DNA from: an uncultured Chloroflexia bacterium
GTDB lineage: Bacteria > Chloroflexota > Limnocylindria > Limnocylindrales > CSP1-4
Reading direction: 5' to 3'
Assembly: GCA_963720755.1 (NCBI GenBank)
Contig: CAVRGP010000002.1
Location: 96,001-160,000 of the forward strand
DNA length: 64,000 nucleotides
Shown here: positions 5,604 through 64,000 of the stretch, one piece after another
Layout of the letters: the number at the start of each line of letters is the position of its first letter
Position numbering within the stretch: the first letter of the stretch is position 1
Translations under genes and position numbers: made by a program
The notes under the pieces: model-generated
Seen by the model: only the letters and a program-made list of their open reading frames with translations
What the model was told of the DNA's origin: nothing
Database searches by the model: none

Positions 5604-5667
5604 GGGCGGCCTCGGATCCTCGTCTGGTTCGCCAGGTGGGCCATCCGGCGATCAACGGATTTCCCTC

Positions 5668-5696
5668 TTGGCGACTGCGGTTTGGCCCCGTATACT
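5668..5696 (+). promoter_or_regulatory. Sigma70-type promoter for the Cys-rich ORF-prfB unit
   Basis: TTGGCG-N17-TATACT. Confidence 0.65.
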
Positions 5697-5794
5697 GTGC
5701 CAAAACCCGCCGATATCGGACCTCCCCAGGGTCCTCTACTCGAGCCGAATCGTTTCCCCAGTCGCCTTGCCCAGCACACTGAGAGGGAGCCCCA

Positions 5795-6019
5795 TTGAAG
5801 CAGGCCGAGGAAGCATCCTTCGTCGATCTGATCGCCTGCGAGCGGGACTGCCGATCGTGCAGCTATGCCGCGGCGCTGGATTGTGACGGCAACTGCGGCG
5901 TCTGTCCGCACAACGCCTACTGCCCGTGCGTGAACCCCGTCGTCGCCCGGAGCAAGACGGCGCTGCGGCTCATCGAGCTGCGCCCCATCCTGCTCCAGGA
6001 TCTGCAGGGCCGGAACTAG
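5795..6019 (+). CDS. Small cysteine-rich protein (74 aa, 8 Cys), putative metal/Fe-S binding
   Basis: GAGAGGGAG SD before a TTG start and GC3-biased codons. Motifs CERDCRSC, CDGNCGVC, CPC. Its stop directly abuts the prfB start. Confidence 0.75.
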   Translation: MKQAEEASFVDLIACERDCRSCSYAAALDCDGNCGVCPHNAYCPCVNPVVARSKTALRLIELRPILLQDLQGRN

Positions 6020-7127
6020 GTGGAAGCGTCCGCCATCCGCGACCTGGCTGAACGGATCCAGTCGACCTCGGGGCATCTTTGACCTCGAGACCAAGGAAGC
6101 CCGGGTCGCCTCGATCGAGGCGCTGACCCAGGAAGCCGGGTTCTGGGACGACGGCCGGGCCGCCCAGAAGGTCCTTCGCGAAGCGGACGGGCTGCGTTCC
6201 GAGATAGCGACATGGCGCGAGTTGCTCGTCCGTGCCGATGACCTCATCGCGGCGGTCGAACTCCTGTACGAGGGGCCGGACGCCGACCTGGAAGCCGAAC
6301 TCGAACACGACGCGGCGGCCCTCGAGACCGACTTCAAGCGCGAGCGGACCGCTCTGCTCTTCTCCGGCGATTACGACGAACGACCGGCCCTCCTGTCGAT
6401 CAGTGCCGGAGCGGGCGGGACCGAGGCGACGGACTGGACCGAGATGCTCCTCCGGATGTATCTGCGCTGGGCGGAGCGCCACCGGTTCCAGACCGAGATC
6501 CTGGACCAGCAGGAAGGCGAGCAGGCCGGTCTCAAGAGTGTCACCGTGGCCGTGAATGGCCGACGCGCGTACGGCTGGATGCGAGCCGAACGAGGGGTGC
6601 ATCGTCTCGTCCGGATCAGCCCGTTCGACTCGCAGAACCGACGCCAGACGACGTTCGCGCTCGTGGAAGTCCTGCCCGAGGCCGAGGACGATGTCGAGAT
6701 CGAACTCGACTGGGACCAGATCCGGGTCGACACCTATCGCTCCCAGGGGGCCGGGGGTCAGCATGTGAACAAGACCGATTCCGCGGTCAGGCTGACCGAT
6801 CTCAAGACGGGGATCGTCGCCCAGAGCCAGAACGAGCGGAGCCAGACACAGAACAAGGAGATGGCCATCAAGGTCCTCAAGGCGCGGCTCCTCGAGCGCG
6901 CGCTCGAGGAGAAGGAGGAGGCGGTGCGCCAGCTCAAGGGTGAGCACGTCGAGGCCGGCTGGGGCAACCAGATCCGAAGCTACGTCCTCCACCCGTACCA
7001 GATGGTCAAGGACCTGCGGACCGGGTATGAGACCGGCAACACGGGGGCCGTCCTCGACGGCGACCTCGACGCATTCATGCAGGCAGAACTCGAGCGGGTG
7101 ATCGGCGAGGAAGCGGTCGCCACGTGA
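6020..7127 (+). CDS. prfB: Peptide chain release factor 2, with programmed +1 frameshift
   Basis: GTG at 6020 reads to CTT TGA C (6077-6083). The +1 frame continues into an ORF with the SPF and GGQ motifs. Confidence 0.96.
6070..6083 (+). promoter_or_regulatory. prfB +1 frameshift site (GGGG-CAT-CTT-TGA-C)
   Basis: Canonical CTTTGAC slippery stop with a short internal SD-like GGGG. Confidence 0.92.
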
Positions 7128-8104
7128 CCTCGGCCCGCCGGTCGGAGGGGATCGCCGACCGGCCATCGATCCGACCGGTCACACCGGACGAGTTGACGAT
7201 CTGCGCCGATGTCCTCCGCACGTCGGTGAACGACTACACCGGCCGCCTCGGCCAGCCCGAGATGCCGCCCGACTCGGCTGCGGTGGTCCGCCTGTTCGGA
7301 CACCTCCATTCGACCGATCCGGACCGATTCGTGGTCGCCACCGTTCCCGGGGCTGGGCCCGAGGGCGAGCGGATCGCGGGTTTCGCCTCCGCCTACGTCC
7401 GGGAGGACCTGTGGTACCTGGCTATGCTCTTCGTGCTACCCGGATCCCAGGGTGCCGGGCTGGGACGCCGGCTGTTCGCCCGGGTGGACGCAGTCGATCG
7501 ATCGATGCGTCGCGGCGTGGCCACAGACAGCGCCCAGCCGATCTCGAACGCGATGTACGCCGCCGAGGGCCTTGTCCCGAGGATGCCGCTGTTCAACCTC
7601 TCCGGGTTGCCGCGGCAGGTGGACGCATTTGGGGCGCTGCCGTCCGGGGTCACCCCGCTGGCGTTCGATGAGATCGCCGCGGGCGCGCCCGATGGCCAGG
7701 GTCACCGCATGCTCGTCGACGCGATCGACGGGATCGACCGCGCCTGCCTGGGCGTCGCCCACCCGACCGACCATCGCTTCCTGAGGCTGGAGGACCGGCA
7801 TGGTTGGTTGTATCGGGGCGCGGACGGGACGCCCGTCGGATACGGCTATGCCGGTGAAGCCGGGCGCATCGGGCCGATCGCCGTCGTCGATCCGGCGCTC
7901 GTCGCCCCGGTTATCGGACACCTGATGACGGCCGTCGTTCCGCGTGGAGCGTTCGCCCTCTGGATCGGTGGCGATGCCGACCGAGCCATGACCGCTGCGC
8001 TCCGGGCGGGTCTTCGGACCGATCCGTTCCCGGTCCTGGTGGCGTGGGATCGCCCCTTCGCCGACTTCTCCCGCTATCTGCCGCGGTCGCCCGGGCTGCT
8101 CTGA
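7124..8104 (+). CDS. GNAT-family N-acetyltransferase (probably tandem GNAT domains)
   Basis: Acetyl-CoA motif LFVLPGSQGAGLGRRL; GTGA overlap with prfB. Confidence 0.8.
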   Translation: MTSARRSEGIADRPSIRPVTPDELTICADVLRTSVNDYTGRLGQPEMPPDSAAVVRLFGHLHSTDPDRFVVATVPGAGPEGERIAGFASAYVREDLWYLAMLFVLPGSQGAGLGRRLFARVDAVDRSMRRGVATDSAQPISNAMYAAEGLVPRMPLFNLSGLPRQVDAFGALPSGVTPLAFDEIAAGAPDGQGHRMLVDAIDGIDRACLGVAHPTDHRFLRLEDRHGWLYRGADGTPVGYGYAGEAGRIGPIAVVDPALVAPVIGHLMTAVVPRGAFALWIGGDADRAMTAALRAGLRTDPFPVLVAWDRPFADFSRYLPRSPGLL

Positions 8105-10039: not shown

Positions 10040-11437
10040 ATGCAGGACCGATCAGCGATGGCTCCCGTCGACCCGACCTCGTCCATCCCTGCCGAGCCGG
10101 TCGTGATCGCCGATCCGGTCGAACCGACCGAACCCGGCCTACCCGACCCGCCCGAGCCGGTTGCGTCAGCCACCGTCCAGCCGCGGCGGATCCCGCTGCT
10201 GGCGATCTCGATCGCCCTGGTCGCGGTCATGGCCGGAGCGTCACTGTTCCTGTCGGGCTACTCGCTCGGGCGGCAGGCCGCGTCCGACCCCGGGACGCCA
10301 GCGGCCGATTCCGAGGCGTTCCAGCCCTTCTGGGACACCTACCACATGATCGCGGACCGGTTCGCCGGCGGTCCGGTCGATCGGGAGCTCCTCATCCAGG
10401 GCGCGATCCGAGGGATGATCGACTCGCTCGGCGACCCATTCTCGGCGTATCTGACCGCGGATGAGTACCGCCAGAGTCTGCAGGGGATCAGCGGCCAGTT
10501 CGAGGGGATCGGCGCCGAGATCGGCACACAGGCCGGTGACGGGACCGCGGGCTGTACACCGCTGGGTCCGTCGTGCCGACTGGTCATCACCCGGCCCATC
10601 CCGGGTTCACCGGCCGAAGCGGCCGGGCTGGCTCCGGACGACATCGTCGTCGAGGTCGATGGGAGGTCGGTCGACGGGCTGACCGTCGACGGGGCCGTCC
10701 AGCTGATCCGGGGGCCGAAGGGTACCGACGTGACCCTGACCATCCAGCGCGGGACGGGCGCGCCGATGGACCTGGCGATCACCCGCGACGTCGTCCAGCA
10801 GCAGGAAGTCGCCAGCAAGGTCCTGGCCGACGGGACCGTCGGCTATGTCAAGGTCGCCGGGTTCTCGGACGCCTCCGCCGACCAATTCGTCGAGGCGCTG
10901 ACAGCTCACCTGGCCGCCGGGCGGACAGACCTCGTCCTCGACCTTCGCGGCAACCCGGGTGGGTACGTCACCGCCGCTCGCAAGATCGCCAGCCAGTTCA
11001 TCGCCTCCGGGCCGGTGTTCTGGGAGCAGGACGCCCAGGGCCGGCAGGTCGCGACGAACGCGCTAGGCGGCGGGATCGCCACCGATCCATCGATCCGTCT
11101 CGTGGTCCTGGTGGACGGCGGGAGCGCATCCGCAAGCGAGATCGTGGCCGGGGCCTTGCAGGACACGGGCCGGGCGACGCTGGTCGGCCGTCAGTCGTAC
11201 GGCAAGGGTACGGTCCAGCAGTGGCAGGAGCTGAGTGGCGAAGGCGGTGCGTTCAAGCTGACGATCGCTCGGTGGCTCACGCCCGACAAGCGCTGGATCA
11301 ATCAGGTCGGCCTGACCCCGGACGTCGTCGTGACGCTCCCCGATCCGGTGCCGGCCGGCTCGGATCCCGACCTGGACAAGGCGATCGAGATCCTCGGCGG
11401 GGCCGCTCAACGGGGTTCCGATCGCCTCGCCGCGTGA
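10040..11437 (+). CDS. S41-family C-terminal processing peptidase (CtpA/CtpB-like) with PDZ domain
   Basis: FEGIGA PDZ loop, LDLRGNPGG, SASASEIVAGALQD and SYGKGTVQ; N-terminal TM. Confidence 0.92.
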   Translation: MQDRSAMAPVDPTSSIPAEPVVIADPVEPTEPGLPDPPEPVASATVQPRRIPLLAISIALVAVMAGASLFLSGYSLGRQAASDPGTPAADSEAFQPFWDTYHMIADRFAGGPVDRELLIQGAIRGMIDSLGDPFSAYLTADEYRQSLQGISGQFEGIGAEIGTQAGDGTAGCTPLGPSCRLVITRPIPGSPAEAAGLAPDDIVVEVDGRSVDGLTVDGAVQLIRGPKGTDVTLTIQRGTGAPMDLAITRDVVQQQEVASKVLADGTVGYVKVAGFSDASADQFVEALTAHLAAGRTDLVLDLRGNPGGYVTAARKIASQFIASGPVFWEQDAQGRQVATNALGGGIATDPSIRLVVLVDGGSASASEIVAGALQDTGRATLVGRQSYGKGTVQQWQELSGEGGAFKLTIARWLTPDKRWINQVGLTPDVVVTLPDPVPAGSDPDLDKAIEILGGAAQRGSDRLAA

Positions 11438-11446
11438 CGGCCACTC

Positions 11447-11475
11447 TTGCACTCCAGGAAAGCATCGAGTACGGT
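11447..11475 (+). promoter_or_regulatory. Putative sigma70 promoter upstream of the sORF/smpB
   Basis: TTGCAC-N17-TACGGT. Confidence 0.45.
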
Positions 11476-11503
11476 TCGCGGGAACGAAAGGAGGTGATGT
11501 GCA

Positions 11504-11554
11504 GTGAGTGACAGTATGCCTAGCTGCACCACCTCGCAGGAGATGGCCGTCTAG
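11504..11554 (+). CDS. Putative 16-aa small ORF (MSDSMPSCTTSQEMAV)
   Basis: AAAGGAGGTGAT at 11487-11498, with GGAGGT 8 nt before GTG. Flanked by a promoter-like motif and a strong hairpin. Confidence 0.5.
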   Translation: MSDSMPSCTTSQEMAV

Positions 11555-11584
11555 TCGGACACCCTGTGGGTGGTACGCAACTCG

Positions 11585-11612
11585 GACGCCGGCCCGCACT
11601 CGGGCCGGCGTT
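11585..11612 (+). terminator. Strong GC hairpin (terminator/attenuator-like) between sORF and smpB
   Basis: GACGCCGGCCCG-CACT-CGGGCCGGCGTT, 12-bp stem, weak U-tract. Confidence 0.55.
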
Positions 11613-11642
11613 CGTGCGCCCAGCCCGAGAAGGAGCCATCCC

Positions 11643-12110
11643 ATGCGCGACGAACACACCGTCGCCCTCAACCGAAGAGCCCGCCACGACTTCACGATCG
11701 ATGAGACGTTCGAGGCCGGCCTCGTCCTGACCGGGACCGAGATCAAGTCGATCCGGGCCGGGAAGATCACCCTGTCGGACGCGTACGCGCGGGTCGAGCG
11801 AGGCGAGGCCTGGCTGATCGGTGCGCACATCGCGCCCTTCGAGGGCGGCAACCGCTACAACCATGAGCCCAAGCGGACGCGCAAGCTGCTCCTCCATCGC
11901 TCGGAGATCGACGAGCTGCTGGGTCGAGCCAAGGCCAAGGGCCAGACGATCGTGCCGCTCCGGCTGTACATCGACCCGAAGGGTCGAGCCAAGGTGGAAC
12001 TCGGGCTGGCGCGCGGCAAGCAGCTCCACGACCGGCGTCGCGACATCGCCGAACGCGACTCCCGGCGCGATGTCGCGCGCGAACTGGCCGACGCCCAACG
12101 CGGTCGCTGA
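11643..12110 (+). CDS. smpB: SsrA-binding protein SmpB
   Basis: Motifs NRRARHDF, EAGLVLTGTEIKSIR, RTRKLLLH and ARGKQLHDRR; AAGGAG SD before the ATG at 11643. Confidence 0.97.
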   Translation: MRDEHTVALNRRARHDFTIDETFEAGLVLTGTEIKSIRAGKITLSDAYARVERGEAWLIGAHIAPFEGGNRYNHEPKRTRKLLLHRSEIDELLGRAKAKGQTIVPLRLYIDPKGRAKVELGLARGKQLHDRRRDIAERDSRRDVARELADAQRGR

Positions 12111-12147
12111 CGCGCCACCCCCGAGCGAGAAGTCCTAGTATCGGGTC

Positions 12148-13221
12148 ATGCCCATCCCCGATCGTCTCCGCGTCGGACCCGTCATCGAGGCCGTCGATGC
12201 CCACGCTGCCGGTGAGCCGGGACGGGTGATCGTCGGCGGCGTGGAGGTCGCGCCGGGTTCGACGATGTTCGAGGCGATGACCTGGCTCCAGGCGAACCGG
12301 GACGACATTCGCCTCAGGATGTTGCGTGAGCCACGCGGATACCCCGCCGCGAACTGCAATCTCATCCTTCCCCCGGCCGACCCGACGGCGGACGCCGGCT
12401 ACGTGATCATGGAGCAGGTCGAGTACCCCGGGATGTCCGGCACGAACACGATGTGCGTGGTGACCGTGCTCCTCGAGACCGGGATGGTCCCGATGACGGA
12501 GCCGTTGACCGAGCTCACCCTCGAGGCTCCAGCCGGATTGATCCGCGTCCGGGCCGATTGCCGCGACGGCAAGGTCGAGTCGGTCACGTTCCGGAACGTG
12601 CCGGCCTTCGCGACGCACCTGGACCGCCCGATCGAGGTACCGCACCTCGGGACGGTGACGGTCGACGTGGCCTATGGAGGGATGTTCTACGTCATCGCCG
12701 ACGCCGAGCCGTTCGGCCTCCGGCTGACGCCGGACGAGGGCGCCGACATCGTGCGGATCACCGAGATGATCAAGGCCGCAGCCAGCGAGCAGCTCCCTGT
12801 CGTCCACCCGGACCAGCCTGGTTTCAGTGGCATCACCATCGGCCAGCTTTCCGGGCCTGCTCACGATCCGGCCAATAGCCGACGCAACGTGGTGACCGTC
12901 TCGACCGGGACGCTCGACTGGCAACGGCCGGCGACCTGGACGGGGGCGATCGACCGCTCGCCGTGCGGCACGGGGACGTCGGCCAGGATGGCTGTGCTCC
13001 ATGCGAAGGGCGAGCTGAAGGTCGGTGACACATTCCGCCACGAAGGCGTCCTCGGGACGGTCTTCACGGGTCGCGTCGAGTCGGAGACCACGGTCGGGCC
13101 GTACCGGGCGATCATCCCGAGCATCAGTGGGCAGGCCTGGATCACCGGCTTCGCGACATACGTCATCGACCCGACCGACCCGTTCCCGGAGGGCTACACG
13201 GTCGGCGACATCTGGGGCTAG
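12148..13221 (+). CDS. Proline racemase-family protein (Ser/Cys active-site pair)
   Basis: Motifs DAHAAGEPGRV, LREPRG, MSGTNT (in place of MCGH) and DRSPCGTGTSA. Confidence 0.9.
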   Translation: MPIPDRLRVGPVIEAVDAHAAGEPGRVIVGGVEVAPGSTMFEAMTWLQANRDDIRLRMLREPRGYPAANCNLILPPADPTADAGYVIMEQVEYPGMSGTNTMCVVTVLLETGMVPMTEPLTELTLEAPAGLIRVRADCRDGKVESVTFRNVPAFATHLDRPIEVPHLGTVTVDVAYGGMFYVIADAEPFGLRLTPDEGADIVRITEMIKAAASEQLPVVHPDQPGFSGITIGQLSGPAHDPANSRRNVVTVSTGTLDWQRPATWTGAIDRSPCGTGTSARMAVLHAKGELKVGDTFRHEGVLGTVFTGRVESETTVGPYRAIIPSISGQAWITGFATYVIDPTDPFPEGYTVGDIWG

Positions 13222-54152: not shown

Positions 54153-55652
54153 CTAGCTCGGCAGCAGTTTGACGATCGACGCCGCGGCATCGCTGGCGGC
54201 ATCGAGGAGACCCGTCGGGAACAGGCCCAGGAGGATCGTGAGGGCCGCCGCCGCGGCCAGACCGGCCCACTGCAGGCCACCGTGCCGGACGGCAGACGCG
54301 TCAGCGACCGGGTCGCGCATGTACATGTAGACGACGACCCGCAGGTAGTAGAACGCGGCCACGGCGGCGTTGAGCACCGTGATGACGGCAAGGATCGTGA
54401 GCGGCCCGCCCGCTTCGACCGCGGCAAGGATGATGTTGGCCTTGGCGAAGAATCCGGCGGTCGGCGGGATCCCGACGAGCGACAGCAGGAACAGGGTCAT
54501 CAGGACGCCCATCAGCGGCTCCCGTCGGCCCAGACCCGCGAACGTCCCGAGGCTCGAGGTGACGCCCGTCCGCTTCTGGAGCGAGGCGATCACCGCGAAC
54601 GCACCGAGGTTCATGAACCCGTACGCGACCATGTAGAACAGCAGCGCCGCGATCCCGGCACCCTCGGGGTCCTGGGCCCAGGCAGCCAATCCGACGAGCA
54701 TGTAGCCGGTGTGAGCGATGGAGCTGTAGCCCAGCATCCGCTTGACGTTGTCCTGGGTGAGGGCCACGAGGTTCCCCAAGGTCATGGTGATCGTCGCGAG
54801 GACGATGACGACCGGTAGCCACCAATCGGCCAGCGGCCCGAGCGCTTCGACGAAGAGACGCAGGATGAGCGCGAACGCTCCCACCTTCGGCCCGACCGAG
54901 AGATACCCGGTGATCGGGGTCGGCGAGCCCTGATACGCGTCGGGCGTCCAGTAGTGGAAGGGGACGGCCGCGATCTTGAAGGCGACGCCGGTCGTGAGGA
55001 AGGCGAGGCCCATCGCCAGGCCGGGCGAGAGCGGGGCGCCGCCCGCCACGATGACCGACAACTGGGCGGCGATCACATCGAGCCGCATCGACCCGGTGAT
55101 GCCCCACACGAACGCCAGGCCGAACAGGAAGATCGCCGAGCTGAACGAACCCAGGAGGAAGTACTTGATCGCGCCTTCCGTCGAGTAGCCGTCGCTCTTG
55201 TGGAAGGCGGCCAGCAGATACCCCGGCAGGACCATCAACTCGAGGCCGATGAACAGCAGCAGGAGGTCGGCCGCAGCGGAGATGAGCATCGCGCCCGTCA
55301 TCGCGAAGACGAGGATCGCCGCGAATTCGGCGATCGGCAGACCCCGCGGAACGAGGTAGTCCGGCCCGAACAGGATGGTCATCGCGATGACCGCAACGAA
55401 CAGGACATCGAGGAACGTGGTCAGGGCGTCGACCTGATAGCTGCCGCCGAACGCGGTGCTCTGTGCGTCACCGGCGGAGACCGCCGCTCCCACCGTGATC
55501 GTCAGGAGCGCCGTGATCGCCAGCCCGGCCAGGGCGGTGAAGACCGCGACCGCGGTCCGGCCCGGCCGGATGAGATCGACGATCAGGATCGCTGCGGCTG
55601 TCAGGATCGCGGCGACGAACGGGCTGATCGTCACGAAGTCCTGCCAGCTCAA
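54153..55652 (-). CDS. nuoN: NADH-quinone oxidoreductase subunit N
   Basis: Motifs EGAIKYFLLG, FKIAAVPFHYWTPDAYQGSP and KRMLGYSSIAH. Confidence 0.95.
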   Translation of the reverse strand: MSWQDFVTISPFVAAILTAAAILIVDLIRPGRTAVAVFTALAGLAITALLTITVGAAVSAGDAQSTAFGGSYQVDALTTFLDVLFVAVIAMTILFGPDYLVPRGLPIAEFAAILVFAMTGAMLISAAADLLLLFIGLELMVLPGYLLAAFHKSDGYSTEGAIKYFLLGSFSSAIFLFGLAFVWGITGSMRLDVIAAQLSVIVAGGAPLSPGLAMGLAFLTTGVAFKIAAVPFHYWTPDAYQGSPTPITGYLSVGPKVGAFALILRLFVEALGPLADWWLPVVIVLATITMTLGNLVALTQDNVKRMLGYSSIAHTGYMLVGLAAWAQDPEGAGIAALLFYMVAYGFMNLGAFAVIASLQKRTGVTSSLGTFAGLGRREPLMGVLMTLFLLSLVGIPPTAGFFAKANIILAAVEAGGPLTILAVITVLNAAVAAFYYLRVVVYMYMRDPVADASAVRHGGLQWAGLAAAAALTILLGLFPTGLLDAASDAAASIVKLLPS

Positions 55653-57295
55653 TGCGCGGCCCCGCCTTCGGGTTCCAGGGCGACCCGCGGCCGGGTCAGG
55701 ACCCAGCCGATCCGGGCCACGACGAAGATGACGACCAGGGCCCCGAAGCCGATCGGCGCCGCGATCGGGATGTCGATCGCGGATGCGGGCTCGACGGCGG
55801 CCAGCGTCTCCCGCACCGTGCCGGAGAACAGGTCGAGCAGAAGTCCAGGCTGGATCCCGAAGATGACCACCAGGGTCCCGAGCGGGACAAGGGTCAGGAT
55901 CTCGACCGGGTTCATGTCGGTCAGATGGTCACCGAGGCCTGCCAGGAAATCGGACAGCTCGCCGAACACGACCCGGCCGTACATGTACAGGAGGTAGCCG
56001 GCGGCCAGGATCATGACGAATGCCGCGACCGCGGCCGCGTACGGATCCGCCTCGAAGGTCCCGACCAGGACCAGGAATTCGCCGACGAAGCCCGACAGTC
56101 CGGGCAGGCCGGCGGAGGCGAACACGAAGAACCCGAAGACGGCCGCGTAGACCGGCGTCCGGGCGGACAACCCGCCCATCTTGGCGATCGTCCGGTCATG
56201 GGTCCGCTCGTAGATGACGCCGACCAGCAGGAACAGCGCCCCCGTGATGAGGCCGTGATTGATCATCTGCAGGATCGCGCCCTGGAGCCCCTGCTGGGTG
56301 AAGACGAAGATCCCCAGGGTCACGAACCCCATGTGGCTGACCGATGAGTACGCCACCAGTCGCTTGAGATCCGGCTGGACGAGGGCCACGATCGCCCCGT
56401 AGATGATCGCGATGAGCGACAGCACGATGATCGCCGGCGCGAAGGTGTCCGCGGCGGACGGGTAGAGCGGCAGCGCGAACCGGATGAAACCATAGGCGCC
56501 GAGTTTCAGCATGATCGCCGCCAGCATCACCGAGCCTGCTGTCGGCGCCTCGGTATGGGCGTCGGGCAGCCAGGTGTGGAACGGGAACATCGGCACCTTG
56601 ATCGCAAAGGCCAGGAAGAAGGCGAGGAACGCCAGCAGCTGCAAGCCGTCGGCGAAGCCACCGGTCGCGGCATACGCCCGAAGCGCTTCGAAGTCGAAGG
56701 CGCCGACCCACGACCCGTCGTGACCCGACTGATAGGCGAACGCGGTCGCCAGGATCGCCACCAGCATCAGGAGCGACCCGACCAGCGTGTACAGGACGAA
56801 CTTGATCGTGGCGTAGATCCGATTGGAGCCGCCCCAGATCCCGATGATCAGATACATCGGGACCAGGACGATCTCCCAGAAGATGTAGAACAGGAACGTG
56901 TCGAGGGCAAGGAATACGCCGATCAGCCCGACCTCGAGGATGAGGAAGGAGATCATGTATTCCTTGATCCGGGTCTGGATCGGCTTGAAGCTCGCCAGGA
57001 TCGCGATCCAGCTGAGCAGGGTCGTGAGGACGACCAGGCCGACCGACAGGCCGTCGGCACCAACCTTGTACTGGATCCCGAAGGCCGGGATCCAGTCGAC
57101 GGCCTCGACGAACTGGAACCCGGGCCGTCCCGGCAGGTAGCCGACCAGGAGGAGCAGGGACACGACGAATGTGAGGAGCGCGAAGGCCAGCGCCGTCGCA
57201 CGCGCAGCCGAGGGTGGCGCGATCGCGATGACCAGGGCGCCGATCAGCGGCAGGAAGGTGACGATCGACAGGATCGGGATCGTGCTGACGTCCAT
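55649..57295 (-). CDS. nuoM: NADH-quinone oxidoreductase subunit M
   Basis: Motifs FYIFWE, IKVPMFPFHTWLPDAHTEAP and AYSSVSHMG. Confidence 0.95.
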   Translation of the reverse strand: MDVSTIPILSIVTFLPLIGALVIAIAPPSAARATALAFALLTFVVSLLLLVGYLPGRPGFQFVEAVDWIPAFGIQYKVGADGLSVGLVVLTTLLSWIAILASFKPIQTRIKEYMISFLILEVGLIGVFLALDTFLFYIFWEIVLVPMYLIIGIWGGSNRIYATIKFVLYTLVGSLLMLVAILATAFAYQSGHDGSWVGAFDFEALRAYAATGGFADGLQLLAFLAFFLAFAIKVPMFPFHTWLPDAHTEAPTAGSVMLAAIMLKLGAYGFIRFALPLYPSAADTFAPAIIVLSLIAIIYGAIVALVQPDLKRLVAYSSVSHMGFVTLGIFVFTQQGLQGAILQMINHGLITGALFLLVGVIYERTHDRTIAKMGGLSARTPVYAAVFGFFVFASAGLPGLSGFVGEFLVLVGTFEADPYAAAVAAFVMILAAGYLLYMYGRVVFGELSDFLAGLGDHLTDMNPVEILTLVPLGTLVVIFGIQPGLLLDLFSGTVRETLAAVEPASAIDIPIAAPIGFGALVVIFVVARIGWVLTRPRVALEPEGGAAH

Positions 57296-59265
57296 CAGCG
57301 GGCCAGCAACAGGTAGGCGCCGGCCATCGCGATCAGCCCGATCGCGATCCCGAGGGCATAGTTCTGGACCCGACCGGTCTGGATCTCGCCGAGTCCGCGA
57401 CCGGCGTCCACGGTCGCCCCGCCGACGGCGTTCACCGTCCCGTCGACGACCTCCCGGTCGAACCACCAGAGGGCGGCTGCGATCCGGCCGCCGATCACCA
57501 TGAACAGCAGGTGGTAGAGCTCATCGAACCACCATTTGTTGAGCGATGCCCGGTACAGGAATGGCGCCCGAGCGGTCAACTCGCGAACGCGTTCCGGGCG
57601 AGCCGGCATCCGGATCGGACCGATGTTCGCGCCGAACAGGCGCCAGGCGATGAGCAGACCGATGGTCGCGATGGTGACACTCGCCAGGATCAACACCCCG
57701 TCGATGCCGAAGAGCTCGTAACCGGGCTGGGCGCCCTCGCCGCGCAGGATCAGTTCGCCTTCTTCGAAGATCGGCTTCAGCCATTCGACGATCCGGCTCG
57801 CCCCGAGGGGCAACCCGAGGTAGAGGCCGAGGAGGGCGGACGGGATCGCCAGGAGGATCAACGGGATCGTCATCACCGCCGGCGACTCGTGGATCTTGTC
57901 CCAGATCGCCTTGGGTCCCCGGAACGTGCCCCAGAAGGTCAGGCCCATGAGCCGGAACATGTAGAACGCGGTCATCCCGGCCACGACGAGGCCGATCAGC
58001 CAGACCCACCAGAATCCGAGCTTGAGCGACTCACCCAGGACCTCGTCCTTCGAGAAGAACCCGGCCAGCGGCGGGATCCCGGCGATCGCCAACGAACCGA
58101 TGAACATCGTGATGTAGGTGATCCGGATCTTGGTAGACAGGCCGCCCATCTGGCGCATGTCCTGCTCTTCGTGGACTGCGTGGATGACCGATCCGGAGCC
58201 GAGGAAGAGCAGACCCTTGAAGAAGCCGTGGGTCATGAGGTGGAAGATCGCGGCCGTCCAGGCACCGACGCCGAGCGCGGCGAACATGTAGCCGAGCTGG
58301 CTGAGGGTGGAGTACGCGAGGACCCGCTTGATGTCCGTCTGGGTCATCGCGATCGACGCCGCGAGCAGGGCGGTGAAGATGCCGATGGCCGCCACGACGA
58401 CCAGGGCGGATGGGGCGTGGGCGAAGATCGGGTTCGTCCGGGCGACCAGGTAGACGCCCGCGTTGACCATCGTGGCCGCATGGATCAGGGCGGACACCGG
58501 GGTCGGACCCTCCATCGCGTCCGGCAGCCAGACGTGGAGGGGGAACTGGGCGCTCTTGCCCATGGCGCCGGCGAAGATGAGCATGGCGATGATCGTGATC
58601 GTCGTCCCGTCGAGTTCGCCGATCCGCTCGATGACGGCCCGGATATCGAGCGTTCCCAGGCTCACGAAGATGAGCATGATGCCGAGGGCGAAGCCGACAT
58701 CGCCGACCCGGTTGACGATGAACGCCTTCTTGGCCGCGAGGGCCGCCGAGCGCTTGCGATACCAGAACCCGATGAGCAGGTAACTGCACAGGCCGACCAG
58801 CTCCCAGGCCACGAACACGACCAGGAAGCTGCTCGCCAGAACGAGCAGCAGCATGGAGAACATGAACAGGTTCAGATAGGCGAAGAACCGCCAGTAGCCT
58901 GGGTCATGACTCATGTAGCCGATCGAGTAGACGTGGACGAGCAGGCCGATCGTCGTGACCACGATCAGGAGACAGGCGGTCAGGGAGTCGACCACGAACC
59001 CGACATCGACCACGAAGTGATCGGCCGGGATCCAGGTGAACCAGGTGACGGCGTACCCGTGCGACGTCTCCGAGCCCGGCAGCAGCGGCGCCGTCCCCGA
59101 CAGGACGTCGACGACCAGCGCCATCGCGATGACCCACACCGCCAGGATCGCCAGGACCGGGATCCAGTGCGCCTGTTTGCCGAGCCGGCGCCCGATCATC
59201 GCCGTCAGGGCGAACCCCGAGATGGGCAGGATGACCAGGACCGGGATGAGGCTCTCGAGGTTCAC
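57295..59265 (-). CDS. nuoL: NADH-quinone oxidoreductase subunit L
   Basis: Motifs KAFIVNRVGD and GKSAQFPLHVWLPDAMEGPTPVSALIHAATMV. Confidence 0.96.
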   Translation of the reverse strand: MNLESLIPVLVILPISGFALTAMIGRRLGKQAHWIPVLAILAVWVIAMALVVDVLSGTAPLLPGSETSHGYAVTWFTWIPADHFVVDVGFVVDSLTACLLIVVTTIGLLVHVYSIGYMSHDPGYWRFFAYLNLFMFSMLLLVLASSFLVVFVAWELVGLCSYLLIGFWYRKRSAALAAKKAFIVNRVGDVGFALGIMLIFVSLGTLDIRAVIERIGELDGTTITIIAMLIFAGAMGKSAQFPLHVWLPDAMEGPTPVSALIHAATMVNAGVYLVARTNPIFAHAPSALVVVAAIGIFTALLAASIAMTQTDIKRVLAYSTLSQLGYMFAALGVGAWTAAIFHLMTHGFFKGLLFLGSGSVIHAVHEEQDMRQMGGLSTKIRITYITMFIGSLAIAGIPPLAGFFSKDEVLGESLKLGFWWVWLIGLVVAGMTAFYMFRLMGLTFWGTFRGPKAIWDKIHESPAVMTIPLILLAIPSALLGLYLGLPLGASRIVEWLKPIFEEGELILRGEGAQPGYELFGIDGVLILASVTIATIGLLIAWRLFGANIGPIRMPARPERVRELTARAPFLYRASLNKWWFDELYHLLFMVIGGRIAAALWWFDREVVDGTVNAVGGATVDAGRGLGEIQTGRVQNYALGIAIGLIAMAGAYLLLAR

Positions 59266-59579
59266 TGGCGCATCGAGTCGTACTCGTCGACCAGCGGTGT
59301 CTTCTTGTTGCGGTAGATCGCGATCACGATCGCCAGCCCGACGGTCGCCTCGGCGGCGGCGATGGCGATGACCATCAGGGCCACGACGGAGCCCTGGGCG
59401 GCCATGGCCGCGTCAGCCCCGAAGGATCCGAAGGCGACGATCGCGAGGTTGACGCCATTGAGCATGAGTTCGATGGACATCAGCATGCTGATCGCGTTGC
59501 GCCGGGCCAGGAACCCGAACGAGCCGATCGCGAAGAGCAGGCCGGCCAGGATCAGGTAGGCGTCCAGCGAGTCGGTCAT
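59262..59579 (-). CDS. nuoK: NADH-quinone oxidoreductase subunit K
   Basis: Motifs RRNAISMLMSIELMLN and AAAEATVGLAI. Confidence 0.95.
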   Translation of the reverse strand: MTDSLDAYLILAGLLFAIGSFGFLARRNAISMLMSIELMLNGVNLAIVAFGSFGADAAMAAQGSVVALMVIAIAAAEATVGLAIVIAIYRNKKTPLVDEYDSMRQ

Positions 59580-60169
59580 GACGGACCACCGGGTTCGCGC
59601 TTGGCCAGGTAGACGCCGCCGATGACCGCAGCCAGGAGCAGGACGCTGATGACCTCGAACGGCAGAACGTAGTCCTTGAACAGGACCGTGGACAGTGCGT
59701 CGGCCGTGAGCCGGACCCGATGCGCTGCTTCGTTCCAGTCGGTGGCGGCGACCGCCAGGGCGATGACCAGGGCGATGACGATCGATGCGATCGCCGCCGG
59801 GACCGCCTGGGTCTGGAAGACGAGTCGGCTCGGGGCGTCCTTCGTCTGAGTGAGCATGATCGCGAACAGGATCAGGACACTGATCGCCCCGATGTACACG
59901 ATGACCTGGGCCGCCGCGATCAGGGTCGCCCCCAGGATCACGTAGATCCCGGCCAGCGACCCGAAGCACACGATCATGGCCAGGCCGCAGCGGATGATGT
60001 CGCGCATCGTCACGACGAGGAGGGCGGAGCCGATCATCACCGCCGCGAAGATCCAGAACAGGGCGTCGGCCCAATCCTGCCCGAGAAACACGAGCATGAC
60101 GACCGCCACGGCGGTCACCAGGCCGAGGACCATGAGTCCCAGCAGGATCGGGATCAGACGATTCATCAC
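59576..60169 (-). CDS. nuoJ: NADH-quinone oxidoreductase subunit J (with an extra N-terminal TM)
   Basis: Motifs QVIVYIGAISVLILFAIML and YVLPFEVISVLLL. Confidence 0.93.
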   Translation of the reverse strand: MMNRLIPILLGLMVLGLVTAVAVVMLVFLGQDWADALFWIFAAVMIGSALLVVTMRDIIRCGLAMIVCFGSLAGIYVILGATLIAAAQVIVYIGAISVLILFAIMLTQTKDAPSRLVFQTQAVPAAIASIVIALVIALAVAATDWNEAAHRVRLTADALSTVLFKDYVLPFEVISVLLLAAVIGGVYLAKREPGGPS

Positions 60170-60178
60170 GCCACCGGC

Positions 60179-62791
60179 CTACTCGTGATGACTGGGTGCG
60201 ACAGCCGCCCCGCCGTGTTCGTGCCCGTCGCCGCGAGCCTGCCCGTGCCCGTTGCCGTTGGTCGCGACGCCCGTCACCGTCGGCGGCAGCATCGGCAACA
60301 TCCGCGCCGTGTCGATGAGCCGGCCCTGCTCGGCCGCCCTCGTCGCCCAGTCACGCTCTCGCCGGATGTAGGTGACTTCCGTTTCGCGCTCCACCGCGGC
60401 GATGGCCATCAGGTCGATCATCGGCTGCGACCGGCTGGTGTGTGAGAGCTCGAAGTCCGCGCCATCGCGGAGCGCGTCGTACGGGCAGGCATCGACGCAG
60501 ATGCCGCACAGGATGCAGCGACTCTCGTCGACGTCGTACTTCTGCAGGACCCGTGGCTTGGGCATCAGGGCGCCGGTCGGGCAGGTCTCCGCACAGCGGC
60601 CGCAGGAGACGCACGGGGTGTCGTTGAGGCTCATGTCGAGCGGCGTGGTGACGAGCGTGTCGAAGCCGATCCGCATGAAGTCGTAGCAGGCCGCGCCGAC
60701 GACCTCCGAGCAGACCTGGGCGCATCGCCCGCAGTCGATGCAGCGTGACGGTTCACGCAGGATGAAGGCGTGGGAGTCGTCCCGGATGTAGTCGTGGTTG
60801 ACGCCCGTGAACCGGTTCTCCGTGACACTCCGGAAGCCCGCGCCCGCGTGATGTTGCGGTTCGAGTGTGGGCAGGGTCGTCCCGTACTCGATCCCGAGCC
60901 GGCGCAGGTCGCAGAAGCCGATCGCTTCGCAGGTGCACTGGAGGCAACGGGTGGACTCGGCGACGGCGTCCTCGCGGGTGTACGGCAGCTCGTACTCGAC
61001 GTAGGAATGGTTCCGTTCCTCGGCCTCGAGCGCGCTCAGCCGGTAGCGCGGCGTCTTGGCTTCGCTGGTGAACGGCACGATCGACAGGAATTCAGGCTGC
61101 GGTTCAGCCAGGGTCTGCCGGGTCCGGATGGCCGACAGGTCGAGGCCCTTGAGATAGGCATCGACCGCATAGGCGGACCGTCGACCTTCGGCGATGGCCT
61201 GGACCACCGTCGCCGCGCCGATCCGGACGTCGCCGGTACCGAAGACACCGGGACGGCCCGTCTCGAACGTCACGGCATCGGCCTTGAGACGGCGCTGCCG
61301 GGTCGCCTCCGGTCCCTCCGAGCCAGGCCCGATCCAGGTCAGATCCGGGCCCTGACCGATGGCCAGCAGGACGCGATCGCAGGGGATCGTGAACTCCGTG
61401 CCCGGCGCCGGTTCCGGGCGTCTCCGGCCCGAGGCATCCGGCGCGCCGAGGGCCATCCGGATGAACTCGACGCCGGTCACCGTCCCGTCGTCGTCCGTGA
61501 TGACCCGGACCGGACCCGCCTGGAAGATGGCGGTGACACCTTCCTCGATCGCTTCGTGGACCTCGTTGGAGGCCGGCATGTCCTTCATGTCGCGGCGATA
61601 GACGAGGGTGACCTCGGCGGCGCCCTGGCGGATCGATGTCCGTGAGCAGTCCATCGAGGTGAACCCGCCACCGATCACGACGACCCGCTTGCCGGCGTGA
61701 TCCGGATACGGGAGCCCGAGCGTCGCGGTCCGCAGGTACTCCAGTCCGTCCAGGCACTCGGCCGCGTCCTCGCCCGGGATCCCGAGCTTGTTGGTGTCGT
61801 AGCAGCCGATCGCGACGACGACTGCATCGAACCCCTGGAAGGTCAGGTCGTCGAGCGTGAAATCCGTTCCCAGGCCGGCGTTGCAGACGATCTTGCCGCC
61901 CAGCCGGGTCACCGACTCGTACTCCGCCTCGAGGACCTCGACCTTCGGCAGGCGATATTGCGGGATCCCGTACCGGAGCATGCCGCCCGGGGCGGGGTCG
62001 CGCTCGAACACGGTCACGTCGTGACCGGCCAGGAGCAGGTAGAAGGCGGCCGACATCCCGGCCGGGCCGGAGCCGATGACCGCGGCTCGACGACCGGTCG
62101 GGGCCTGCCGTTCGAACGGCAGCGGTGGATCGACATCCTCGTCGAGCATCGCCTTGAGGACCTGATCGCCGGCATAGCGGTGGCTGTCGCGGATGGCGAT
62201 CGCCTCGTCCACCTCGTCACGCCGGCAGTGCTCCTCGCACGGGGCAGGACAGACCCGCCCGAGCACGCTCGGGAACGGGATGGTCCGCTTGAAGATCCGG
62301 GTGCTCTCGCGCCAGTCGGCCTCGGCGTTGGCCTTCAGGAACCCGGGGATATCGATATGGCTCGGGCACTTGTTCTGGCAGGGCGGCAGGCAGTAGGCGT
62401 TGTGGTCGGAGAAGATCAGCTCGAGGTTCGTCCGGCGGAGGCGCCGAAGCTCGTCGGTCTGTGTCTGGACCTTCATCTCGGGCTCGCACGTGCGCGAGCA
62501 GGAGATCGGCGGATGCTCCTCGCCTTCGACCTCGACCACGCACATCCGGCACGCCCCGAAGCCGGGCAACTTCGGCTCGTAGCACAGCGTCGGGATCTCG
62601 ATCCCGTTGTCGCGGCAAACCTCCAGGATCGTCTGGCCCTCGAAGCCCTCGACGACCCGGCCGTCGACTTCGATCCGGATGGGCAGCGAGGATTGCGGGC
62701 GCTGCGGCGACTGCGTATCGAGCAGGCGCTCGGCCAGCGACTCCGGCTCGATCGCGGAAGTGGCGTCGGGGCGTGTCATCAGGTCAGCCAT
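60179..62791 (-). CDS. Multi-Fe-S flavoprotein: NuoG-like 2Fe-2S domain, GltD/SfrB-like FAD-NAD(P)H domain, ferredoxin domains and NuoI-like C-terminus
   Basis: Motifs IPTLCY..GACRMC; PPCQNKCP, GRVCPAPCEEHC; GSGPAG, GGGFTSMD, YRR; CIDCGRC, CVSCGRC, CILCGICVDACP..DFELS. Confidence 0.88.
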   Translation of the reverse strand: MADLMTRPDATSAIEPESLAERLLDTQSPQRPQSSLPIRIEVDGRVVEGFEGQTILEVCRDNGIEIPTLCYEPKLPGFGACRMCVVEVEGEEHPPISCSRTCEPEMKVQTQTDELRRLRRTNLELIFSDHNAYCLPPCQNKCPSHIDIPGFLKANAEADWRESTRIFKRTIPFPSVLGRVCPAPCEEHCRRDEVDEAIAIRDSHRYAGDQVLKAMLDEDVDPPLPFERQAPTGRRAAVIGSGPAGMSAAFYLLLAGHDVTVFERDPAPGGMLRYGIPQYRLPKVEVLEAEYESVTRLGGKIVCNAGLGTDFTLDDLTFQGFDAVVVAIGCYDTNKLGIPGEDAAECLDGLEYLRTATLGLPYPDHAGKRVVVIGGGFTSMDCSRTSIRQGAAEVTLVYRRDMKDMPASNEVHEAIEEGVTAIFQAGPVRVITDDDGTVTGVEFIRMALGAPDASGRRRPEPAPGTEFTIPCDRVLLAIGQGPDLTWIGPGSEGPEATRQRRLKADAVTFETGRPGVFGTGDVRIGAATVVQAIAEGRRSAYAVDAYLKGLDLSAIRTRQTLAEPQPEFLSIVPFTSEAKTPRYRLSALEAEERNHSYVEYELPYTREDAVAESTRCLQCTCEAIGFCDLRRLGIEYGTTLPTLEPQHHAGAGFRSVTENRFTGVNHDYIRDDSHAFILREPSRCIDCGRCAQVCSEVVGAACYDFMRIGFDTLVTTPLDMSLNDTPCVSCGRCAETCPTGALMPKPRVLQKYDVDESRCILCGICVDACPYDALRDGADFELSHTSRSQPMIDLMAIAAVERETEVTYIRRERDWATRAAEQGRLIDTARMLPMLPPTVTGVATNGNGHGQARGDGHEHGGAAVAPSHHE

Positions 62792-62798
62792 GGTCGCC

Positions 62799-64000
62799 TC
62801 ACGAGATCGCACCGGCCGCCACCGCGATCGGGTGGCAGACGCCGGCCGGGCAGGCACTGCGCAGGATGTGCTCGTCCAGCTCGGAACGGAAGTATCGCAT
62901 CCCGCTGCTGAGCGGAAGCGTCGTCAGTCGCTCGTGGTCGCACAGCGCCGATGCCACGATATCGTCCGAGAGGTCGGCGAGGAGCGCCGGGTCGGTCGGT
63001 CGCGGGCGGCCATCGACGATGCGGTCGGCGATCTCGGACAACCGCCGGGTCCCGATCCGACACGGGATCGTCTTGCCGCACGCCTCCCCGGCGCAGAACC
63101 GGGTCAGAAGCCGGGCGAGGTCCACGATGCAGGTCCGGTCGTCGGCGGCGACCACCGACCCAGAGCCGATGTGGGCACCGGCGTCCCGCAACGGCGCGAA
63201 TGCGTAGGGCGTGTCGAGGAGTCCCGGTGGCAGGATGCCACCGGATGGGCCCCCGACCAGGATCGCCTTGAGCGATCGGCCGGCGGGCAGGCGGCCACCG
63301 AGTGCGACGATGTCCCGGAGCGGCGTCCCGAGGGGTACCTCGGCGATCCCTTCTCCGGACGTCGCCCGGACCTGGACGAGGATGGTGCCCGGCGCATCCG
63401 GAGCACCGATCGCCGCGAAGGCCTCCGACCCGTGGATGACGATCCAGGGGACCGTGGCCACGGTCTGGACGTTGTGGACGACGGTCGGCAGCCCGAACAG
63501 GCCCCGCTCCGCGGGATGCGGCGGCCGCTGCTCGGGCTGGCCGCGCTTGCCCTCCAGCGCCTTGAGCAGAACGGTCTCCTCGCCGAGCATGTAGGCGCCC
63601 TGCACCGGCCGGACCGTCACGCCGATGTCGTGACCGGATCCAAGGACGTCGATACCGATGAACCCGGCGTCCTCGGCGGCGGCGATCGCCGCGGTCAAGG
63701 TGCGGATCGCCTCCGTCGCTTCGGTCCGAACGGCGATGATGACCTCGGCGGCGCCGGTGGCGAACGCCACGATCGCGGCGCCCTCGATGACGGCGAACGG
63801 GTCGCGTTCGAGCAGGAACCGGTCCGTCCCGGTCGCCGGGTCCGCTCCGTACCCGTTGACGACCACGTACCGGCGAGGCGCGTCGGTGGTCGCGGCCGTC
63901 CGCCATTTCGTCGCGGCCGGGAAACCCGCACCGCCGCGGCCGCGCAGTCCGGACTGGTCGATCATCGCGATCGTCGCGGTCTCCCCGAAGTTCCGGATCA
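62799..64000 (-). CDS. NuoF/HydB-like flavoprotein, divergent (5' truncated by window edge)
   Basis: Motifs GLRGRGGAGFP, GEET, VGGPSGG and EHI..CPAGVC; frame open to the window edge. Confidence 0.88.
   Translation of the reverse strand, partial: IRNFGETATIAMIDQSGLRGRGGAGFPAATKWRTAATTDAPRRYVVVNGYGADPATGTDRFLLERDPFAVIEGAAIVAFATGAAEVIIAVRTEATEAIRTLTAAIAAAEDAGFIGIDVLGSGHDIGVTVRPVQGAYMLGEETVLLKALEGKRGQPEQRPPHPAERGLFGLPTVVHNVQTVATVPWIVIHGSEAFAAIGAPDAPGTILVQVRATSGEGIAEVPLGTPLRDIVALGGRLPAGRSLKAILVGGPSGGILPPGLLDTPYAFAPLRDAGAHIGSGSVVAADDRTCIVDLARLLTRFCAGEACGKTIPCRIGTRRLSEIADRIVDGRPRPTDPALLADLSDDIVASALCDHERLTTLPLSSGMRYFRSELDEHILRSACPAGVCHPIAVAAGAIS

Follow-up and report, generated by a model that had tools for sequence, protein, structure and literature searches.

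The window analyzed here is a 64,000-nucleotide stretch of DNA from an uncultured Chloroflexia bacterium of the class Limnocylindria (assembly GCA_963720755.1, contig CAVRGP010000002.1, positions 96,001 to 160,000). Near its end, on the minus strand, lies a complex I (nuo) operon in which the gene directly ahead of nuoJ encodes an 870-residue iron–sulfur flavoprotein, here named X. Reading the same contig beyond the window end gives the gene order nuoA-B-C-D-H-IE-F-X-J-K-L-M-N, where IE is a fusion of the N-terminal half of NuoI with a NuoE-like protein and F is the product of a nuoF-like gene. The C-terminal half of NuoI forms part of the end of X, and the rest of the IE-F-X module resembles the bifurcating transhydrogenases NfnABC and StnABC rather than the NuoEFG module of ordinary complex I.

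The operon and the gene of X

The reading frame of X is open over 60179..62857. We place its start at the ATG at 62791, which lies 7 nucleotides beyond the TGA that ends the nuoF-like gene upstream and has a GAGG directly ahead of it; in most X-related loci the alignment begins at residue 1. The region upstream of the window was read as L001 (G000:C2:156001-176000 of the same contig), where a coordinate equals the window coordinate minus 60000. The core subunits of the Q- and P-modules all score above curated NCBIfam cut-offs, namely NuoB (TIGR01957, 218 bits, cut-off 142.7), NuoD (NF004739, 434 bits, cut-off 360), NuoH (NF004741, 324 bits, cut-off 305), NuoL and NuoN (Table 1), which assigns the operon to the respiratory complex I (Nuo) type. 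The nuoH gene is present once in the genome, which is 93.6% complete. An earlier note on this DNA, made from the letters alone, had placed nuoJKLMN directly downstream of X, and profiles, translations and position bear this out. Inspection of the upstream contig for canonical nuoG and nuoI, on whose absence that note's reading depended, finds neither in the operon, and profile searches find neither above the family cut-offs in the genome.

Domain make-up of X

From its N-terminus, X presents a [2Fe-2S] domain of NuoG/HydA type, a GltD/NfnL-type domain for two [4Fe-4S] clusters, binding domains for flavin adenine dinucleotide (FAD) and reduced nicotinamide adenine dinucleotide phosphate (NADPH), a short cysteine motif, a NuoG/HydA-type ferredoxin-like domain, the NuoI half and a tail (Table 1). 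The 870-residue open reading frame (ORF) with a NuoG-type 2Fe-2S domain, a full GltD-type FAD domain and three 4Fe-4S motifs is thus confirmed as the earlier note described it, and the Pfam scan likewise finds no molybdopterin or H-cluster domain in X. Conservation was followed in the best 80 of 570 relatives obtained by scanning species-representative genomes with X. Among these loci, C70, C81, C84 and C98 of the [2Fe-2S] domain are invariant in 78-79, and C134, C138, C142, C181, C185 and C189 of the GltD/NfnL-type domain in 79-80. The cysteines of the ferredoxin-like domain, which overlaps a Fer4 dicluster match at residues 727-773, are invariant or altered in 1 locus among 77.

The flavoprotein region matches PF00070 in addition to the family listed in Table 1 and has the features of a GltD/NfnL-type NADPH flavoprotein: two [4Fe-4S] motifs ahead of it, a GxGxxG dinucleotide fold for FAD and a second Rossmann fold that bears YRR. 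Its VYRRDMKDMPA motif is kept in 80/80 loci, and the YRR within it is common to the NADPH-using StnC and NfnA. YRR is a mark of NADPH use, and the earlier note had proposed NADPH on this motif; the likeness to StnC and NfnA points the same way. Just ahead of the GltD insert, residues 119-135 match the opening part of PF10588, the His-cluster motif of NuoG (positions 1-17 of 40; E 4e-4, under the cut-off), with the His of 'SDH' at residue 130. The CxxCxCx5C motif stands beyond the insert; its four cysteines are invariant in 80/80 loci, and it is found also in 9bov_A and 8oh5_C. As judged from these motifs, the GltD insert is placed within the His-cluster motif, as in NfnA and StnC, with putative ligands on its two sides, in keeping with the earlier impression that the FAD domain splits this motif. 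At the other end of the protein, the tail has a conserved stretch (MIDLMAIAA..RETEVTYIRRERDW) to about residue 816, followed by a variable Gly/His-rich end; conservation along it drops from 0.80 to 0.54.

Two assignments for X were tried and rejected. As NuoG it reaches 88.3 bits with TIGR01973 (cut-off 470), over the N-terminal 98 positions only, and has no Molybdopterin Pfam domain. As a glutamate synthase small subunit or SfrB-type protein it reaches 540.6 bits with PRK12814 (657 residues) over residues 38-697, against a cut-off of 916, and its context is a nuo operon. A search of the PDB aligns residues 38-770 to NfnA of Caldicellulosiruptor saccharolyticus NfnABC (9bov_A 4-700, E 2.7e-160) and to StnC of Sporomusa ovata (8oh5_C 4-700, E 6.6e-139). 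The [2Fe-2S] domain, the GltD/NfnL FAD-NADPH insert and the NuoG-type clusters that make up an NfnA/StnC-type A subunit all stand on this one chain. The description of X as a NuoG/GltD-like flavoprotein therefore holds for its domain types, but the protein is an NfnA/StnC-type subunit, not a NuoG.

NuoI is divided between IE and X

The NuoI model TIGR01971 has 121 positions and a cut-off of 113.05 bits. Its best match in the genome is IE, at positions 1-64 (E 3.1e-13; 49.7 bits on IE alone), and its second-best is the end of X, at positions 71-116 (E 1.8e-11). Scanned as a protein, X aligns to the same positions with residues 747-792 (E 2.9e-14, 52.7 bits). No match in the genome-wide search exceeds the cut-off, and a single polypeptide with both CxxCxxCxxxCP motifs of NuoI was not found by it. 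IE opens with the NuoI signatures ..VMYPEDRRDPPPKFRGR.. followed by CETCFQCAQACP.

Alignment to NuoI chains of solved structures gives the same division. Residues 9-74 of IE align to 7ar7_I 23-88 and residues 9-71 to Nqo9 (2fug_9) 6-68, while residues 749-794 of X align to 7ar7_I 99-144 and residues 747-788 to Nqo9 86-127. Because the two pieces cover neighboring, non-overlapping parts of the NuoI chains, NuoI is split between two proteins, with only its second half in X; by these alignments, the first CxxCxxCxxxCP motif of NuoI is in IE and the second in X. The resemblance of the end of X to the C-terminal half of NuoI, noticed earlier, is thus substantiated. A NuoI-like module was said to be fused to X, and NuoI sequence is indeed joined to a GltD-type module, but it is the C-terminal half alone, with the N-terminal half in IE two genes upstream. 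Similarly, X does lie directly ahead of nuoJ, where nuoI would be expected, but nuoH, IE and F precede it.

Origin, trimming and altered flavin site of the partner proteins

The partners of X point to the same family. The NuoE-like part of IE has its best PDB matches in 9bov_C and 8oh5_A. F matches Bfu B subunits best (HydB, 8a6t_B, 335 bits; NfnB, 9bov_B, 333 bits; StnB, 8oh5_B, 324 bits), compared with 271 bits for mycobacterial NuoF and 221 bits for Nqo1 of complex I. Since all three parts match NfnABC and StnABC best, the IE-F-X module is a relative of the Nfn-Bfu/Stn bifurcating transhydrogenases and not an ordinary NuoEFG; the transhydrogenase-like character proposed in the earlier note finds its basis here.

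Both partners are trimmed. F is below all NuoF cut-offs (TIGR01959, 342 bits against 558.65), its Pfam content is limited to Complex1_51K and NADH_4Fe-4S, and its alignment covers only residues 158-573 of HydB, so it is devoid of the N- and C-terminal Fe-S domains. The NuoE part of IE consists of the N-terminal helical domain of NuoE type and ends 30 residues beyond it, before the [2Fe-2S] cysteine pairs; neither cysteine pairs nor a thioredoxin-like cysteine domain are present in it. The C1 [2Fe-2S] site and the B2-B5 sites of the Bfu bifurcating core, the C-terminal 2x[4Fe-4S] domain included, are accordingly missing.

The site for flavin mononucleotide (FMN) in F is rewritten. The FMN loop, N[AG]DEGDPGAF in all five best references, reads NGYGADPATG in F, with N, G and Y kept in 72/72 loci. 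NNVET becomes [H/N/Q]NVQT. At the position of Phe-294 in NfnB of C. saccharolyticus, the residue that stacks against the adenine of NADH (PMC11829005), 60/73 loci have a His. The cluster motif CGKCxxC becomes CGK[T/S]IPC, with the second cysteine gone in 74/74 loci, and an invariant DHER (74/74) follows the last cluster cysteine.

The same genome encodes a second, 705-residue NuoE-NuoF fusion on contig C11 that keeps all canonical motifs (NADESEPGTFKDR, NNVET and ESCGQCVPC), so the changes in F are specific to the nuo-operon copy. The fusion adjoins a protein that resembles the N-terminal part of NuoG and has a Molybdop_Fe4S4 domain, and a molybdopterin oxidoreductase, whose match holds one in-frame TGA, is nearby (L095, G000:C11:60001-76000, at 5819-7936, 4776-5822 and 10522-12162, all on the minus strand). 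The product of this cluster is probably a soluble enzyme akin to NAD-linked formate dehydrogenases and may contain selenocysteine. We considered these genes as the supply of a canonical N-module and rejected them, as they form a separate formate-dehydrogenase-like cluster and NuoI is already fused to X.

Conservation and spread in Limnocylindria

The best 80 relatives of X come from metagenome-assembled genomes that their depositors mostly label Chloroflexota, Limnocylindria or Limnocylindrales. In 79 of these loci the genes found are a contiguous piece of the order A-B-C-D-H-IE-F-X-J-L-N, which is complete in 54. Of 77-80 loci, 76-80 retain the Fe-S cysteines of X; those of the NuoI C-terminal half are kept in 76-77 of 77, and the IE motif CETCFQCAQACP in 71 of 71. 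A class-wide survey with IE (E <= 1e-10; 401 sampled Limnocylindria genomes, 13 flagged unpublished included) gave a match in 369 genomes, in 173 of the 178 of high quality and in 63 of 65 genera. With one genome taken per family, the match spans the NuoI and NuoE parts in 4/4 other families, two of which (f2 and f4) have the full operon order.

Decay of the module is graded within the class, as read from the cysteines. NuoE-type cysteines persist in some IE homologues (P0223, and P0241 in part), P0164 retains the first pair only, and F of family f3 retains the four-cysteine motif. In genomes of two other families, at L177 (G004:C8:96001-115000) and L178 (G013:C82:8001-17362), IE, F and X come straight after nuoB and nuoD, with no nuoC, nuoH or nuoJ-N adjoining; a 158-residue ORF without known family stands ahead of nuoB in clusters of this type.

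A second group with the complete Bfu-type module

Distant homologues of IE form a large family: P0236 (253 residues, 35% identical) has 1201 matches, one member of which is named Thermoleophilia by NCBI. In 80 metagenome loci of this second group (L096-L175), the gene order is always a piece of B-C-D-H-IE-F-X-JK-L-M. L097 (10001-15201, plus strand) exemplifies nuoI split around a complete Bfu-type module. Its IE joins the NuoI N-terminal half to a complete NuoE with the [2Fe-2S] domain; its F (646 residues) has a thioredoxin-like N-terminal domain, the canonical motifs NGDEGDPGAF and ESCGKCVPC, and the C-terminal 2x[4Fe-4S] domain; and its X-like protein (831 residues) terminates in the NuoI C-terminal half. 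The tail of the X-like proteins of this group differs from that of X. With the Bfu bifurcating core in place, the enzyme of the second group is, on its gene content, a candidate confurcating complex I. Because the group carries the same NuoI split around a complete Bfu core, the Limnocylindria form probably derives from the full Bfu form by trimming, a direction that the comparison of the two sequence groups suggests.

Neighboring features

Table 1 Features of the operon around gene X (window coordinates unless marked L001 or G000:C2)
Feature	Position	Strand	Evidence
Gene X, 870 residues, NfnA/StnC-type Fe-S flavoprotein with terminal NuoI C-half	60179..62791	-	ORF, Pfam, PDB sequence search
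X, N-terminal [2Fe-2S] domain, NuoG/HydA type, residues 37-112	62456..62683	-	Fer2_4 PF13510, E 3.6e-20
X, GltD/NfnL-type (GltD/DPD) domain for two [4Fe-4S] clusters, residues 134-213	62153..62392	-	Fer4_20 PF14691, E 1.1e-17
X, FAD and NADPH binding domains, residues 236-536, GSGPAG and VYRRDMKDMPA motifs	61184..62086	-	Pyr_redox_2 PF07992, E 4.5e-29; aligns to StnC/NfnA throughout
X, CxxCxCx5C motif, residues 616-627, beyond flavoprotein insert; second part of NuoG-type cluster motif	60911..60946	-	Sequence
X, NuoG/HydA-type ferredoxin-like domain, residues 677-742, CxxCxxCxxxC (684-694) and CxxCxxCxxxCP (727-738)	60566..60763	-	Fer4_Nqo3 PF22117, Fer4 families
X, C-terminal half of NuoI, residues 747-798, YDVDESRCILCGICVDACPYDAL..GADFELS	60398..60553	-	TIGR01971 positions 71-116; NuoI chains
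X, C-terminal tail, residues 799-870	60182..60397	-	No Pfam family match
nuoF-like gene F, 441 residues, trimmed Bfu B-type subunit	62799..64000, cut by window end, on to G000:C2:160124 (= L001:4124)	-	
IE gene, 219 residues, between nuoH and F, outside window	L001:4129-4788	-	
nuoJ	59576..60169	-	NCBIfam NuoJ models, E 2e-33, under cut-offs; position
nuoK, start approximate	59262..59579	-	Translation; L097 equivalent gene matches PF00420
nuoL	57295..59265	-	NF005141, 721 bits (cut-off 556)
nuoM, start inferred from nuoL end	55649..57292	-	Translation
nuoN	54153..55652	-	TIGR01770, 409 bits (cut-off 332.6)

Just upstream of nuoA lies a gene for an S-adenosylmethionine-dependent methyltransferase of PF02636 (Methyltransf_28; L001:9318-11129, minus strand, = G000:C2:165318-167129; E 8e-54). 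A PF02636 gene also directly follows the X gene in the genome of family f3 (L177:5861-7216, minus strand; E 3.9e-54). NDUFAF7, an assembly factor of complex I that methylates NDUFS2/NuoD, belongs to PF02636.

Proposed origin, assembly and function

We consider it likely that X is the large subunit of a rebuilt complex I input module and that the enzyme is a non-bifurcating NADPH:quinone proton pump. As to its origin, an 11-subunit-type operon (nuoABCDHIJKLMN) would have acquired a three-gene Nfn/Stn-type (BfuCBA) cassette within nuoI. The N-terminal half of NuoI, with the first CxxCxxCxxxCP motif, would thereby have been joined to the NuoE-like protein. The C-terminal half, which has the second motif, would have been attached at the end of the NfnA/StnC-like X and have replaced the formate-dehydrogenase-like domain there. 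The two halves may pair as the usual 2x[4Fe-4S] fold of NuoI and so anchor the module on NuoB, NuoD and NuoH. Electrons would then pass from NADPH to the FAD of X, on to its two GltD-type and its NuoG-type clusters, through the clusters of the split NuoI to N2 in NuoB, and finally to quinone, with NuoL, NuoM and NuoN pumping protons. By analogy with StnC and NfnA, NADPH is the most likely donor.

Several observations weigh against this reading. At 49.7 and 52.7 bits, neither NuoI half reaches the family cut-off of 113. AlphaFold2 models are of low confidence in the regions concerned: for IE the mean predicted local distance difference test (pLDDT) score is 63, with the NuoE-like N-terminal domain at 82-96 and the NuoI half mostly below 56; for X, modeled from 19 sequences, the mean is 49.9 and residues after 557 are below 50. 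One locus of the 80, L036, carries a fragment of nuoF in inverted orientation where its contig ends, and in L041 no nuoF or IE match turns up in the 3 kb that precede X. In families f3 and f5, the cluster is reduced to nuoB-nuoD-IE-F-X and is beside neither nuoJ-N nor nuoH, the latter being on another contig. Finally, F retains the loop GLRGRGGAGFP, the Lys after it (K73, 72/72 loci), GEETVL (73/73) and Asp95 (72/72); the last corresponds, by a +91 offset alone, to D186 of StnB, which the account of that enzyme names as the NAD+-protonating residue. Because these elements of the nucleotide site are kept, input of NADH at F is possible, as is a regulated or transhydrogenase-like role of the enzyme.

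The conservation of F bears on whether NADPH could be the sole donor, with F and the NuoE remnant as structural leftovers that bind neither FMN nor NADH. The altered FMN loop, NNVET and Phe-294 position, the lost second cluster cysteine, the contrast with the C11 paralogue that keeps all canonical motifs, and the place of F under all NuoF cut-offs speak for leftovers; but F is under strong purifying selection, nucleotide-site elements included. As GLRGRGGAG, K73, GEETVL and Asp95 are strongly conserved, the site appears kept but altered, not dead, and we regard the leftover explanation as rather unlikely. NADH oxidation at the remodeled site remains a possible second route: of the dual input proposed earlier, the GltD-type FAD/NADPH module in X is borne out, and the second input is uncertain because the FMN/NADH site of F is remodeled.

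The earlier note had also raised bifurcation. An enzyme of this kind, as in the proposed Nuo-Bfu, would couple NAD(P)H oxidation to ferredoxin and quinone by electron bifurcation or confurcation, with extra pumping force or an energy-linked transhydrogenase as the outcome. In its favor, the proteins of the module all stem from the bifurcating Nfn-Bfu/Stn family, the second group has NuoI split in the same way next to a full BfuBC core, and membrane-bound Nuo-Bfu enzymes have been predicted by Schut et al. (PMC9304861). However, the bifurcation site is formed by FMN, the B1 [4Fe-4S] cluster and the C1 [2Fe-2S] cluster of the NuoE-like subunit (PMC11829005), and the C-terminal clusters of the B subunit are where ferredoxin receives its electrons (PMC11829005; PMC10482914). 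In the Limnocylindria form the C1 cluster and the C-terminal B-subunit clusters are lost, together with the N-terminal Fe-S domain of that subunit and one cysteine of the B1/N3 motif (74/74 loci), and the FMN loop is rewritten; the known non-bifurcating relatives are those without B2-B5 (PMC9304861). For these reasons bifurcation is improbable here. Reverse operation, in which the proton-motive force drives electrons from quinol to NADP+ and so supplies NADPH instead of PntAB, strikes us as a long shot. A match to PntB (PF02233) was not found in the genome, and Nfn/Stn enzymes connect the pyridine nucleotide pools in both directions (PMC10482914); yet nothing in the sequence bears on direction, and absence from an incomplete genome (93.6% complete) is weak evidence. 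Least probable of all is that the cassette merely broke nuoI, leaving complex I inactive and IE-F-X a soluble Nfn/Stn-like enzyme. That each NuoI half alone is under the family cut-off and that the relatives of the module are soluble enzymes would fit it. Against it, every cysteine of both halves is kept (71/71 and 76-77/77 loci), the arrangement is class-wide and recurs in a second group, the other nuo genes are all intact with five above cut-offs, and X is without the FdhF-like domain, the removal of which from StnC gave no purifiable active complex (PMC10482914). The conservation makes a merely disrupted nuoI very unlikely.

The NADPH:quinone proton pump that we favor would matter in several ways. 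Limnocylindria are abundant in soils and lakes, and their sole complex I would draw electrons from NADPH, unlike textbook complex I. A core Fe-S subunit built from two polypeptides, each fused to a protein of the module, would be a new docking mode for an input module, and the split NuoI would preserve a trace of gene insertion as a way of building modular redox enzymes. The series from full through partly decayed to trimmed Bfu modules offers a natural experiment in losing electron bifurcation. The pump would also be a direct tie between the soluble Bfu enzymes and the way in which the N-module of complex I arose. We add a broader idea that is tentative and that we hold to be possible at best: complex I may have gained an input module a second, independent time, by capture of a whole bifurcating Nfn/Stn transhydrogenase in nuoI and its tethering by both NuoI halves, with the full form of the second group pumping protons and coupling NADPH, NADH and ferredoxin to quinone and the Limnocylindria form being a streamlined NADPH-fed pump. 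If this is true, the 'dead-end' cluster branch of StnC has been turned into a live wire to quinone.

Comparison with known systems

Searches of the literature, which extended to main texts outside subscription journals, turned up no account of a nuoI gene in two parts, nor of a nuo operon with an Nfn-type module. The closest relatives are the soluble NfnABC and StnABC (9bov/9bp5, 8oh5/8oh9 and 9n5u). According to the published account (PMC10482914), StnC holds FAD and NADPH in its GltD-like part (residues 102-565), which feeds the StnAB core via Fe-S clusters; its C-terminal domain resembles formate dehydrogenase and bears a branch of clusters that is a dead end, and this FdhF-like domain (683-1172) is needed for the tetramer and for stability. 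X shares the NfnA/StnC domain order to about residue 745, and the NuoE part and F match the C and B subunits best. Beyond residue 745, however, X has the NuoI C-terminal half instead of the FdhF-like domain and ends at 870; the C subunit is reduced to its N-terminal domain, fused behind the NuoI N-terminal half; the B subunit is without its terminal Fe-S domains and one cluster cysteine; and the genes stand in a nuo operon instead of a soluble three-gene operon.

Nuo-Bfu, a 14-subunit complex I predicted by Schut et al. (2022, PMC9304861) to have BfuABC instead of NuoEFG, resembles the present operon in that a Bfu-type module takes the place of NuoEFG in the middle of a nuo cluster, with quinone as the proposed acceptor. 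It differs in its hosts (Deferribacteres, Proteobacteria, Planctomycetes and Nitrospirae) and in having 14 separate subunits, A-N; the main text of that work makes no mention of NuoI, of a GltD/NADPH domain in its A subunit or of the lineages found here (PMC9304861). Degli Esposti (2015, PMC4758237) notes mbx-like operons, in Thermotoga and proteobacteria, that have a gltD-related flavoprotein where NuoI would be. In these operons, too, a flavoprotein of GltD type that binds NAD(P) is associated with the place of NuoI in a membrane module resembling that of complex I. Compared by description, they differ in being of the ferredoxin-linked Mbx/Mrp type, without NuoE/F-like genes, and the account given of them describes no split NuoI.

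With canonical complex I (NuoA-N; Nqo1-15 of Thermus thermophilus), the operon shares NuoA, B, C, D, H, J, K, L, M and N, and its NuoI keeps both cysteine motifs, YPE..FRG at the start and FE after the second motif. The differences are these: NuoI is on two polypeptides, the NuoG-like X has a flavoprotein insert and is without the large C-terminal domain, NuoE is without the N1a cluster, the NuoF site is remodeled, and the gene order is ABCDH..JKLMN.

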